Sequence record: ON528734
Origin: Shigella phage ESh24
DNA: 64,000 nt
Strand: one strand, 5' to 3'
This document shows positions 3,464 through 63,598 of the stretch, one piece after another. The position numbers and the translations under genes were made by a program. The notes under the pieces were generated by a model. It ran no database searches. It worked only from the letters and a program-made list of their open reading frames with translations, and was not told the origin of the DNA. Each line of letters opens with the position of its first letter. The stretch's first letter is position 1.

Positions 3464-3495
3464 GTTTACAAGTTGGCAAGGTTATGGTATAGTAA
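3464..3495 (+). promoter_or_regulatory. T4-type early promoter
   Basis: GTTTAC (3464-3469) and TGGTATAGT -10. Confidence 0.65.
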
Positions 3496-6618: not shown

Positions 6619-6643
6619 GGGAGCCTTCGGGCTCCCTTTTTTA
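6619..6643 (+). terminator. rho-independent terminator (GGGAGCC-UUCG-GGCTCCC + T run)
   Basis: 7-bp GC stem, UUCG loop, T6 tract. Confidence 0.85.
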
Positions 6644-8105: not shown

Positions 8106-8137
8106 GTTTACAAGACAGTTCCTCTGTGGTACTATAC
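8106..8137 (+). promoter_or_regulatory. T4-type early promoter with conserved leader cassette
   Basis: GTTTAC, TGGTACTATACAACTATCAACTAC, GGAGGA RBS. Confidence 0.75.
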
Positions 8138-8163
8138 AACTATCAACTACGGAGGAACAGAAA

Positions 8164-11079: not shown

Positions 11080-11110
11080 TTTACTTTGCCACAAGGATGT
11101 GGTATAATGT
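11079..11110 (+). promoter_or_regulatory. T4-type early promoter (GTTTACTTTGCCACAAGGATGTGGTATAAT)
   Basis: Near-identical 30-mer also at 55657-55686. Confidence 0.75.
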
Positions 11111-33190: not shown

Positions 33191-33222
33191 GTTTACATCC
33201 CTGTTCTTCCATGGTACTATAC
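33191..33222 (+). promoter_or_regulatory. T4-type early promoter with conserved leader cassette
   Basis: TTTTCACAAAACTGTTTACA...TGGTACTATACAACTATCAACTACTGATACAGATTTGGAGAATGAAATG. Confidence 0.75.
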
Positions 33223-33257
33223 AACTATCAACTACTGATACAGATTTGGAGAATGAA

Positions 33258-51033: not shown

Positions 51034-51579
51034 ATGAAATTTAATTATAATCCTGAATGCATACCAAATCCGGTAGCTAAACTGATTGATTTTGATGTTG
51101 TAAGCACTTATGTATGCCCTGTTAAACCACTGGAAATTAAGGAACCTACTATGACTACCGCTATTGAAATCGGCAAAACCTACAAACTGGTTGAACCTAA
51201 AATTAAAACTAATGCCTTGATTTCTGGTCATAAAACTCTGACTGATGTTTTTGGCGAAGGCGAATTTATTGTTGAAGAATTTGCCAAAAGTGAGTGGTTT
51301 AACAAATCTTACGTCATCCACGGTCGCCGGTTAGATAATAACAAAATAAAGAAAAACCTGGTTTATGAAGATGAGTTCATCCTGTTCCAAGAAGTTGAAG
51401 AACAAGACCCTACAGACCTGTTGTGTGCTGCTGTGTCTATCCGTCGTCCTTTTGATAATCCTATCTGTGGTTGGGTAACAGACCAGTGGATTGAAGATGG
51501 TGTTGAGCTTCTGAACGTTGTCCATGCAGGAGATTTTAGTGTAGTACCTCGTAGTGCGGTGGTAGCTATTTTGAATTAA
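51034..51579 (+). CDS. hypothetical protein (181 aa), paralog of downstream MotB-like gene
   Basis: Shared C-terminal motif CGWVTDQWIEDGVELLNVV vs CGYITDQWVEDGVKLYNVV. Confidence 0.55.
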   Translation: MKFNYNPECIPNPVAKLIDFDVVSTYVCPVKPLEIKEPTMTTAIEIGKTYKLVEPKIKTNALISGHKTLTDVFGEGEFIVEEFAKSEWFNKSYVIHGRRLDNNKIKKNLVYEDEFILFQEVEEQDPTDLLCAAVSIRRPFDNPICGWVTDQWIEDGVELLNVVHAGDFSVVPRSAVVAILN

Positions 51580-51582
51580 TAG

Positions 51583-51613
51583 TTTACAAACTCTTGGGAC
51601 CAGAGTATAATGG
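51583..51613 (+). promoter_or_regulatory. T4-type early promoter
   Basis: GTTTACAAACTCTTGGGACCAGAGTATAAT. Confidence 0.7.
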
Positions 51614-51656
51614 TCCTGTGGAGTATAAAAATCTTTTTAACAAGTGAGAGATAACT

Positions 51657-52145
51657 ATGATTATTAATATTGGTGAAATTGCTCGTGTATCTGATAAATC
51701 CCGTTCTAAAGCAGCAGGAAAATTGGTCGAAATTGTAAGCATTCAGCTTAAACACGGCGTTAAAGATGAAGATTCTGAAGTAAAAGTGCGTATCATTCCT
51801 AAAGATGGAAAGTCTAAACCTCAGTTTGGTTATGTTCGTGCGAAATTTCTTGAATCTGCGTTTTTGAAAGCTGTTCCCGCTAAAGGAATTGAAACGATTG
51901 ATACTTCGCATGTAGGTGTAGACTTTAAGTGGAAACTCGGTCAAGCTATTAAGTTCATTGCTCCTTGTGAATTTAAATTTATCAAAGATGATGGAAAGGC
52001 TGCTTATACTCGCGCTATGTGTGGATACATTACCGATCAATGGGTAGAAGATGGCGTTAAGTTGTACAACGTGGTATTTTTAGGAACATACAAAGTCATT
52101 CCTGAAAGTTGGATTAAACACTATAGCAATGCTCTCTATGCATAA
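51657..52145 (+). CDS. motB: MotB-like protein (162 aa)
   Basis: Size and position between dexA and 39 consistent with T4 MotB; symbol tentative. Confidence 0.5.
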   Translation: MIINIGEIARVSDKSRSKAAGKLVEIVSIQLKHGVKDEDSEVKVRIIPKDGKSKPQFGYVRAKFLESAFLKAVPAKGIETIDTSHVGVDFKWKLGQAIKFIAPCEFKFIKDDGKAAYTRAMCGYITDQWVEDGVKLYNVVFLGTYKVIPESWIKHYSNALYA

Positions 52146-52175
52146 AGTTTAAAATTTTTTCATAAAACTATATAC

Positions 52176-52218
52176 ATCAGTAGTTGATTATGGTACTATA
52201 TCAATATCAACTACTGAT
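52176..52218 (+). repeat. 13-bp perfect inverted repeat (ATCAGTAGTTGAT / ATCAACTACTGAT) flanking a -10-like TGGTACTATA
   Basis: Arms 52176-52188 and 52206-52218, 17-nt spacer. Confidence 0.8.
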
Positions 52219-52317
52219 ATAGAAAACAACTTGGAGAATAAAATGGATAATTCGTTAAAGGTGCTGATACTCTTCTGAAACGCATCGCTCCAATGTTCAA
52301 TTAATGAGGAAATTGTA

Positions 52318-52533
52318 ATGAAACGTAAAATTGTTCAGAACTGCACTAATGACGAATTTGAAGATGTATTATTTGATCCAGATTTGGTAGTGGTTCAAAA
52401 GGAACACACTATTAAGTTTACTCACTTGACTTCTGTTTATGTGTATGAGAAAGTCGGTGATAAACAGCCAATTTACGGTGTATTTCGTGAAATTACTGAA
52501 GACGGCACAACTTACTGGAAGGAAATTTATTAA
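52318..52533 (+). CDS. hypothetical protein (71 aa); Cef-like by size and position
   Basis: GAGGAAA RBS; assignment by position only. Confidence 0.45.
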
Positions 52534-52952
52534 TGGCTATTAAATTTGAAGTTAATAAATGGTATCAATTTAAAAATAAACAAGCTCAAGAAAATTTTAT
52601 TAAAGACCATACTGATAACGGAATCTATGCACGACGTTTAGGTATGGAGCCTTTTAAAATTTTAGATGCTGATTATCTTGGGCGTCCTACTAAAATTATG
52701 ACATCTATAGGTGTACTCAAACGTTGTGCCGGCGGTGATATCCTTGACGAAAACTTTATCTGGCTCTCTACTAACGAAGCTGGGTTCTTTGATGAAGTTG
52801 AAAATCCATATCAGGCTGCTGAAGAACAAGAGCAGGAAGAGCAAGAACAAATAGAAGATTTCATAGAATTCCCGGTAATGAAAGTTACTATTGAAAATAA
52901 TGAACAAGCATGGTCCTTGTATCAGATGTTGAAAGCTCACTTTAAGGAATAA
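52533..52952 (+). CDS. hypothetical acidic protein (139 aa); goF-like by position
   Basis: TAATG overlap; Glu/Gln-rich segment [10 protein letters not shown]. Confidence 0.45.
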
Positions 52953-52954
52953 TT

Positions 52955-53131
52955 ATGCCAATGTATGATTATAAATGCCAATCCGAAGATTGCGGGCATG
53001 AATATGAAAAAATTAAAAAGATTTCTGAACGAGAAAATGATGTTTGCCCTAAATGTCATCGTTTGTCTACTCGTCGGCCTTCTGCTCCTAAGCATGTGAA
53101 TGGTGGTTTTTACGACTTACTTAAAGGGTGA
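52955..53131 (+). CDS. zinc-ribbon small protein (58 aa)
   Basis: CQSEDCGH...CPKCH four-Cys motif. Confidence 0.45.
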   Translation: MPMYDYKCQSEDCGHEYEKIKKISERENDVCPKCHRLSTRRPSAPKHVNGGFYDLLKG

Positions 53132-53133
53132 TT

Positions 53134-53505
53134 ATGTTTAAAATCGGTAAGAAATATCGTATTCGCGAAGGCGAAGAAAAGAAATATCTAATGTCTGCTA
53201 TTTATAGGAATGGTTCTATTAATGCTGTAATATCTACAAGCGAATTTATCGTTGAAGATATGAAAGGTAATAATGTTACAATGATTAGTACAGCATCTGG
53301 AAATGATGGAAAAATTCTTCACAGTTTTCAGAGTAATGTTCTAATTTATGATGAAGAATTTGACTTCTTCGAAGAAGTTCCTGAAGATTTTGATTTTGAA
53401 TGCACCATCACTATGAAATCTGGTGACCCTCTTTCTTTTACAGTTAAAGATGAAAGAAGCCGTTTAAGAATTATTAGTCTCCTTCAAGCCATTAAATTTG
53501 AGTGA
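53134..53505 (+). CDS. hypothetical protein (123 aa)
   Basis: ORF. Confidence 0.5.
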   Translation: MFKIGKKYRIREGEEKKYLMSAIYRNGSINAVISTSEFIVEDMKGNNVTMISTASGNDGKILHSFQSNVLIYDEEFDFFEEVPEDFDFECTITMKSGDPLSFTVKDERSRLRIISLLQAIKFE

Positions 53506-55657: not shown

Positions 55658-55688
55658 TTTACTTTACCACAAGGATGTGGTATAATTA
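55657..55688 (+). promoter_or_regulatory. T4-type early promoter (GTTTACTTTACCACAAGGATGTGGTATAAT)
   Basis: Overlaps gene 39 stop; near-identical to promoter at 11079. Confidence 0.75.
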
Positions 55689-63566: not shown

Positions 63567-63598
63567 GTTTACAACCAAAGCATACTGTGGTACTATAC
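63567..63598 (+). promoter_or_regulatory. T4-type early promoter with conserved leader cassette
   Basis: TTTTTCACAAAACGGTTTACA...TGGTACTATACAACTATCAACTACTGATACAGAATTACGGAG. Confidence 0.75.

Follow-up and report, generated by a model that had tools for sequence, protein, structure and literature searches.

The early promoters of bacteriophage T4 are sigma-70 promoters made up of an UP element, a -35 element, a TGn motif, and a -10 element (PMC2988021). Expression in T4 relies on the same genes being copied in two ways, from an early promoter of their own and by read-through from a start further upstream. The read-through, delayed-early RNA is central to T4 gene expression (PMC2988021). According to reviews, it is still not fully understood how read-through RNA and early shut-off are controlled. 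Promoters in or beside hairpins have been described for this group. Those of T4 e, soc, 49, and I-TevI lie inside an inhibitory hairpin, both arms of which are present in long transcripts from upstream, whereas RNA from these promoters lacks the 5' arm (PMC3014915). T4-type phages also have promoter-early stem-loops (PeSLs; Arbiol et al. 2010, PMC2839356; Comeau et al. 2014, PMC4122927), in which the stem-loop is by definition located just upstream of the promoter (PMC4122927). Here, we analyze a perfect inverted repeat around the -10 element of an early-promoter cassette between motB and cef in Shigella phage ESh24, a T4-like Tequatrovirus. All coordinates refer to a 64-kb window, which is the whole stretch of 64,000 nucleotides (nt) of sequence record ON528734 that was analyzed. 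We see about an even chance that the element is an early promoter whose unconstrained positions encode an RNA stem-loop, and that this stem-loop forms only in read-through RNA.

The motB-cef element resembles the e, soc, 49, and I-TevI elements in that transcripts from upstream hold both arms and its own transcript, with a start inferred from other cassettes, lacks the 5' arm. However, in those genes the promoter is late and the hairpin hides the Shine-Dalgarno sequence or the AUG, whereas here the promoter is early, the Shine-Dalgarno sequence lies outside the main stem, and only weak, nonspecific pairing with the UP tract is predicted. Like a PeSL, the element is an intergenic composite in which an early promoter is joined to a stem-loop and a Shine-Dalgarno sequence; such composites recur around the genome and are tied to gene gain and loss. 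In the local case, it adjoins a 208-bp deletion, and a homologous gene is found elsewhere in Klebsiella phages. However, PeSL stems are upstream and terminating, whereas the arms here are at -30 to -18 and +1 to +13, with the -10 element in the loop and no U-tract. This stem position contradicts the published definition, and we rejected membership in the PeSL class.

RESULTS

A perfect inverted repeat around the -10 element is predicted to fold into an RNA hairpin

The sequence ATCAGTAGTTGAT (52176 to 52188) is the exact reverse complement of ATCAACTACTGAT (52206 to 52218), and TGGTACTATA lies between them. A preliminary description, made from the sequence alone, had reported a perfect 13-bp inverted repeat around the -10 element, and both its coordinates and its exact complementarity were borne out. 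It is the only perfect inverted repeat in the window of at least 13 bp with a 3- to 30-nt loop, and none of this kind occurred in 30 Markov-1 simulations. The repeat extends as an imperfect palindrome with 23-nt arms (52173 to 52195 and 52199 to 52221) that are 83% complementary and 3 nt apart. Each arm has the internal form ATCA-N5-TGAT. The minus strand at 52191 to 52203 reads TGATATAGT, which resembles an extended -10 element directed back into motB, because the palindrome is centered on the -10 element. The two common -10 forms, TACTATA and TATAGTA, are mutually reverse complementary.

RNA folding, one of the checks proposed in the preliminary description, was done for read-through RNA. 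It predicted a strong hairpin at 52168 to 52222 of the plus strand (-21.1 kcal/mol; z = -5.3 versus shuffled sequences), with the -10 element in its loop. From the base up, this hairpin has a 5-bp lower stem (52168 to 52172 with 52218 to 52222), a bulge, a perfect stem of 12 to 13 bp, and a 2 × 2 internal loop. At its top is a 5-bp stem closed by the CUA of the -10 element. As single-stranded DNA, the hairpin had a predicted energy of -12.2 kcal/mol. The transcript that would start at the promoter itself, at about 52206, had no significant fold (z = +0.4). The preliminary description had also raised the possibility of a hairpin occluding the -10 element. The arms can indeed form a strong hairpin with the -10 element in the loop, but duplex DNA occludes nothing, and in RNA the -10 element is merely loop sequence.

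A stable hairpin soon after a stop codon is a feature shared with intrinsic (Rho-independent) terminators. However, those have a G+C-rich stem and a U-tract, whereas the stem here is A/U rich, and the sequence after it reads AUAUAGAAAAC / ATATAGAAAAC. A U-tract is absent after the stem on both strands, and a scan for intrinsic terminators found none at the hairpin. Because no U-tract follows the stem, the hairpin is not an intrinsic terminator. Rfam covariance models gave no match at E values up to 1 in the region from 51400 to 53200, on either strand.

The cassette resembles T4 early promoters except at its -35 position

The right arm of the repeat is a recurrent sequence. It has exact plus-strand copies at 33227 and 63603 and ATCAACTACGGAG variants at 8142, 59952, and 60458, and the window contains 15 matches with at most two mismatches (3.2 expected). 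Copies always directly follow TGGTACTATAcaact. On their 5' side are an 18-nt spacer, GTTTAC, and an A/T tract, and on their 3' side are GGAG and ATG. The cassette was recognized as a T4 early promoter because its copy at 63591 is the motA promoter, for which the T4 GenBank record annotates a -35 element (GTTTACA) and a -10 element (TACTAT). The recurrence of the right arm after TGGTACTATAcaact also agrees with the preliminary description, which had called it the normal leader motif.

Aligned with the other cassettes, the motB-cef copy (all on the plus strand) begins just past the motB stop codon with an A/T-rich, UP-like tract, TTTAAAATTTTTTCATAAAACT (52148 to 52169), in register with their AAAATTTTTTCACAAAAC tract. 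The -35 position (52170 to 52175) is degenerate, ATATAC, with four of six matches to GTTTAC; phage EC121 has GTATAC there. The left arm (52176 to 52188) fills the 18-nt spacer from its first to its 13th nucleotide, which would be positions -30 to -18, and is the sole match in the window to this orientation of the motif. The TGn-extended -10 element, TGGTACTAT (52191 to 52199, with the hexamer at 52194 to 52199), forms the hairpin top. Its hexamer is the TACTAT annotated for motA, and its distance from the -35 position agrees with the 17 to 18 nt of the class. Next is the right arm (52206 to 52218), the standard start-of-transcript motif, which also follows the motA promoter. By analogy with the other cassettes, transcription probably starts at about 52206, 7 nt past the -10 element. 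The motB-cef promoter is like T4 early promoters, such as that of motA, in its UP-like tract, 18-nt spacer, TGGTACTAT, ATCAACTACTGAT, and GGAG ribosome-binding site. It is unlike them in that its -35 position is ATATAC, its spacer holds the exact complement of its own +1 to +13, and its leader is 112 nt long instead of about 20 to 35 nt.

Seventeen reference promoters were used to build an early-promoter weight matrix, with which we scored 127,872 positions. The motB-cef promoter (-10 hexamer at 52194) scored 24.8 bits and ranked 18th, inside the leave-one-out range of the references (2.4 to 49.4). Its UP-like tract had a subscore of 11.9 (reference median, 14.3). The -35 hexamer alone scored zero: its subscore of 0.0 compares with a reference median of 11.4 and minimum of 6.8 for GTTTAC(A). 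A TGn-extended -10 element is able to compensate for a weak -35 element. The weak -35 belongs to a promoter that otherwise scores as a normal early promoter, and the element appears to be a T4-type early promoter in all tested respects save the -35, one that is probably active. The cassette had been called degenerate in the preliminary description. It is a cassette copy with a weak -35, but the weight matrix confines the degeneracy to that position. The left arm had also been said to replace the GTTTAC of the -35. This is wrong in detail, because the position-by-position cassette alignment and the weight matrix place the left arm at spacer positions 1 to 13 and leave ATATAC as the -35.

The cassette at 33215 combines a spacer of the type found at 8130 and 60446 (cctgttcttcc) with a leader of the other type (ACTACTGAT). 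This looks like the chimeric product of intercassette recombination inside the shared -10 element. With its spacer and leader mismatched, the stem is therefore lost.

Stems that straddle the -10 element are enriched among early promoters in the window

Folding every early promoter in the window revealed stems between the spacer and the downstream region at those with -10 elements at 3488, 8130, 38687, 50501, 51606, 52194, and 60446. Weaker stems of this kind were found at 2676, 41341, and 43670. As a null, each spacer was paired with the downstream region of every other promoter. Duplexes of -15 kcal/mol or lower were present at 7 of the 23 early promoters, compared with 4.3% under the null (binomial p = 3.9e-5), and those of -10 kcal/mol or lower were present at 12 of 23, compared with 20% (p = 6e-4). 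We then compared the strands for the nine promoters with duplexes of -12 kcal/mol or lower. Their folds summed to -167.6 kcal/mol for the sense strand versus -111.4 kcal/mol for the antisense strand, and they had 21 G·U pairs in the sense strand versus 4 in the antisense strand. Therefore, with its sense-strand bias and richness in G·U pairs, the class consists of RNA structures of the sense strand rather than of DNA palindromes. Because transcription starts downstream of the left arm, straddling RNA stems could form only in read-through transcripts. An operator had been one reading offered in the preliminary description. The strand asymmetry of the class and the left-arm orientation, which is unique in the window, speak against it.

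The right arm includes the gene's Shine-Dalgarno sequence at four promoters (-10 at 8130, 41341, 50501, and 60446), so read-through RNA would bury it and RNA from the gene's own promoter would not. In this respect, these sister cassettes are like e, soc, 49, and I-TevI. The right arm does not include the Shine-Dalgarno sequence at 3488, 38687, 51606, or 52194.

These findings lead us to a tentative proposal, which we hold at clearly less than even confidence. It is that early promoters across the Tevenvirinae commonly carry RNA elements of one class, stems formed by the spacer and the start of the transcript. Read-through (delayed-early) and local (immediate-early) copies of a message would then differ in structure and hence in translation, RegB sensitivity, and stability, and the motB-cef palindrome would be one member. 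We found no description of -10-straddling stems at early promoters in the literature searched, which left out key older T4 papers.

How the motB-cef hairpin might act in read-through RNA

RNA that starts at about 52206 would carry the right arm alone, and no structure is predicted for its leader. Transcripts initiated further upstream, for instance, at the motB promoter (51583 to 51611), would carry both arms and would form a hairpin of about -21 kcal/mol beginning 23 nt past the motB stop codon. The most likely role of such a hairpin would be to mark read-through copies, which it might do in more than one way. It could be a barrier to 3'-to-5' exonucleases, shielding the motB message after a cut at a putative RegB site, GGAGAATAAAA, 15 nt downstream. 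It could also be a clamp that brings U-rich RNA of the UP element to the purine-rich Shine-Dalgarno sequence, so that ribosomes and RegB would have less access on read-through copies. RNA structure is known to protect against RegB (PMC3014915). The putative site (52233 to 52243, plus strand, with GGAG at 52233 to 52236) is the Shine-Dalgarno sequence of a dead open reading frame (ORF) described below, and it exactly matches the strong RegB consensus GG*AGRAYARAA (PMC3014915). In longer folds of read-through RNA, the U-run of the UP tract pairs with GGAG, and the predicted probability that the Shine-Dalgarno sequence is unpaired is 0.13, compared with 0.54 in RNA from the promoter itself. We infer both read-through from motB into cef in vivo and all functional consequences of the hairpin.

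Promoters upstream of cef in other genera have compensated stems

The T4 comparison proposed in the preliminary description found the promoter and hairpin region to be identical in that phage, with the arms at 6624 to 6612 and 6594 to 6582 of AF158101.6. More broadly, 52171 to 52219 did not vary among six Tequatrovirus representatives, of which three were taken from the divergent end of 527 matching records. Around this invariant core, there was variation in the length of the T-run and at 52170, 52220, and 52225 to 52227. In the lower stem, 52170 and 52220 form an A-U pair in the window and a G-C pair in EC121, and T4 has A·C there.

The cef-upstream promoter also has a stem around its -10 element, with very different arms, in Mosigvirus (RB69), Gelderlandvirus (S16 and a Proteus phage), Tegunavirus, an Erwinia phage, and several IMG/VR contigs. 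Fifteen cef-upstream sequences aligned without gaps from the -35 element onward, and their stems share one register. Both sides changed in 7 of the 11 pairs (for example, AGGGCTAT/ATAGCCCT versus AGGGTTAT/ATAACCCT). There were 33 compensatory cells, compared with 12.2 in shuffles, and the covariation score was reached by none of 500 shuffles. Pairing fell from 76% to between 36 and 44% when the partners were slid by one to three columns. These slid controls are the relevant check, because the structure was derived from the same sequences. The stems contain about five G·U pairs and at most one C·A.

Other phages have hairpins upstream of cef in different arrangements. In Yersinia phage vB_YenM_P8, there is a hairpin, GATAGGGTaattttGCCCTATC, at about 445 to 470 of the extracted locus (L047), with no recognizable -35 or -10 element. 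This suggests that a stem can matter independently of a promoter. In RB49-like phages (L020) and Acinetobacter phage Melin (L048), the stem-loop upstream of cef wraps the -35 element (for example, AGAGGTttacaagACCTCT), and the T-run after it is the promoter spacer. From its layout, this arrangement appears to be a terminator-plus-promoter overlap of the PeSL kind.

The long leader is the scar of a deleted gene

The leader extends for 112 nt from the inferred start at 52206 to the cef ATG at 52318. Most other cassettes have leaders of 19 to 37 nt, and the preliminary description was right to call this one (put at about 100 nt) unusually long. It had also reported a 10-codon mini-ORF, MDNSLKVLIL. 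The mini-ORF is present but has 11 codons (MDNSLKVLILF; 52243 to 52278, plus strand), and it is an out-of-frame fusion created by a deletion, with its junction at about 52246 to 52250. Downstream of the junction is the 3' remnant of an 89-amino-acid (aa) gene (52250 to 52304, plus strand), which in its original frame reads ..FVKGADTLLKRIAPMFN and ends with the TAA at 52302 to 52304.

In vB_Eco_T-01 and many relatives, the intact 89-aa gene lies between the promoter and cef, and there is an overlap of its stop codon with the ribosome-binding site of cef. A 208-bp segment of this gene, located between the near-repeats ATGGAAAA and ATGTAAAA, is missing from the window, T4, Lutter, G8, and others. 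The gene belongs to phrog_3720 (E = 1.5e-45), a family of unknown function. About half of the relatives, T2 and RB5 among them, have it intact (about 261 phage records at 95% identity or more). In Klebsiella phages, distant homologues (about 40% identity) lie at a different genomic position, near tRNA genes.

The long leader and its mini-ORF are the scar of a 208-bp deletion in the 89-aa gene, and since the deletion, the promoter of the phrog_3720 gene would drive cef directly. We also considered a leader peptide or a structured regulatory leader. Both were ruled out: RNA from the promoter itself shows no significant fold, and the mini-ORF is what a frameshifting deletion left behind. T4's long leader before cef reads as a dead gene, without the role of a regulatory leader.

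DISCUSSION

The proposal that the motB-cef element is an early promoter whose stem-loop forms only in read-through RNA has several findings to contend with. The 13-bp core consists entirely of Watson-Crick pairs, and the strands are equal (-21.1 kcal/mol for sense RNA and -20.9 kcal/mol for antisense RNA), which makes this hairpin an exception within its class. Taken alone, it bears no mark of sense-strand RNA selection. The main stem does not contain the Shine-Dalgarno sequence and ends at 52218 to 52222, 15 nt before it. When upstream regions were swapped in from other promoters, the Shine-Dalgarno sequence was unpaired with an average probability of 0.32, and 18% of these controls were as low as the value observed. 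Because swapped regions also lower its accessibility, the occlusion is not specific to this promoter, and we ruled out specific sequestration of the Shine-Dalgarno sequence by the hairpin, since the drop does not exceed that in the swapped-upstream controls. In RB69, enrichment of straddling stems was weak (3 of 17; p = 0.086). The Jiaodavirus promoters of cef and of the phrog_3720 homologue have no straddling stem, and most Tequatroviruses, T4 included, have the A·C mismatch in the lower stem. The register of the motB-cef stem differs from that in other genera, with spacer and downstream positions that sum to 20 rather than 15. Because of this shift, and because the promoter belongs to the inserted phrog_3720 gene, the stem is analogous to those upstream of cef in other genera, and orthology was ruled out. 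Finally, we found no experimental start-site or 3'-end data for the T4 motB-cef locus in the literature searched. All of these points weigh against the proposal. The class-level pattern is more interesting than the single motB-cef copy. If hairpins at the free positions of early promoters do mark read-through copies, they would bring the promoter-in-hairpin device of a few late genes (e, soc, 49, and I-TevI) to the early class and would provide a simple, testable rule for how read-through and locally initiated messages differ.

A rival explanation, which we think unlikely, is that the palindrome is neutral and a by-product of cassette evolution. Early-promoter cassettes would recombine among themselves, and a crossover in the shared -10 element, or an intramolecular template switch correcting a quasi-palindrome, could have copied the complement of the leader motif into the spacer; the palindrome would then persist owing to the youth of the group. 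Correction of quasi-palindromes by template switching is an established mutational mechanism, reportedly first described in T4 rIIB. A standard Mosigvirus cassette (LF82-9, PSGBLB0006) is identical, including the leader, the Shine-Dalgarno sequence, and ATGGATAAT, and differs only at the -35 element, the spacer, and 5 nt past the -10 element, which are exactly the positions that form the palindrome. A perfect, strand-symmetric stem with no G·U pair in its core is what a recent single event (conversion or a template switch) would be expected to leave. Also, with arms of the form ATCA-N5-TGAT, the central 5 nt alone tell a direct from an inverted copy, and the 33215 cassette provides an example of a chimera with mismatched spacer and leader. 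However, a neutral accident does not readily account for the significant enrichment of the same architecture among early promoters or for the compensatory changes that maintain a stem at the cef-upstream promoter of other genera. The preliminary description had proposed a footprint of inverted recombination between cassette copies. An isolated scar of this kind is not supported, on the same two grounds: the layout recurs at many early promoters, and an analogous, compensated stem exists in other genera. In addition, the 49-nt core does not vary in representatives drawn from about 500 genomes, whereas adjacent sites do. The left arm may also be old rather than recent: in Klebsiella phage Phi_KR8, the promoter of the homologous gene has ATCAGTAGT in its spacer, a sequence that two other Jiaodaviruses lack there.

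The remaining alternatives seem improbable to us. In one, the palindrome acts as duplex DNA. It is perfect and centered on the -10 element, its half-site centers are 30 bp apart (about three helical turns), and each arm has internal dyad symmetry; moreover, the mechanism of early-promoter shut-off has been described as not completely understood (PMC3014915). However, the orientation of the left arm is unique, and the other straddling stems are unrelated to it in sequence, so there is no common operator. The G·U pairs of the class become A·C mismatches on the other strand, a distinction that is immaterial to duplex DNA, and the stems of other genera covary instead of conserving a binding site. 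Extrusion offers little help, since 13-bp arms with a 17-nt spacer extrude poorly and the single-stranded DNA fold is just -12.2 kcal/mol. We are equally doubtful of a promoter-terminator of the PeSL type, in which the stem-loop would attenuate or terminate transcription from motB, and cef and goF would be expressed mainly from their own promoter. Early promoters with upstream-terminating stem-loops beside indels are established in T4-type phages (PMC2839356, PMC4122927), the motB-cef cassette adjoins an indel, and RB49-like phages and Acinetobacter relatives have a hairpin and T-run around the -35 element upstream of cef. Even so, the motB-cef stem is A/U rich and is followed by AUAUAGAAAAC with no U-tract on either strand, the terminator scan was empty, and the published stem-loops are just upstream of the promoter, not around the -10 element.

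Gene neighborhood and minor observations

The region from 51600 to 53000 is 97.6% identical to phage vB_EcoM_G8 and 95.5% identical to T4, in the orientation opposite to the T4 map. The inverted repeat is in the intergenic region between motB (51657 to 52145, with its stop codon at 52143 to 52145; identified from the T4 annotation) and cef (coding sequence at 52318 to 52533, plus strand; phrog_1354, E = 3.5e-38). The cef Shine-Dalgarno sequence is GAGGAAA (52306 to 52312), and cef is the first intact gene served by the promoter. The preliminary description had referred to a cef-like gene; the start at 52318 was correct, but the gene is cef itself. It is followed by goF (52533 to 52952, from the T4 annotation) and then by 39.2, with gene 39 further on. 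We also considered the replication origin oriA. It has been placed near soc (PMC3016281), and the element is at about 6.6 kb of T4, between motB and cef, so oriA was ruled out.

At the position of motB.1, there is a gene of 181 aa (51034 to 51579) with a MotB-like C terminus (..DQWIEDGVELLNVVH.. versus ..DQWVEDGVKLYNVVF..). At the same position, motB.1 is 119 aa in T4, and phage Lutter has the long form. A different mini-hairpin, CCACAaggaTGTGG, is wholly within the promoter spacer and abuts the -10 element. It occurs in the window at 11089 to 11104 and 55667 to 55682 (0.01 matches expected), and the same mini-hairpin is found in Klebsiella phages, at Jiaodavirus cef promoters.

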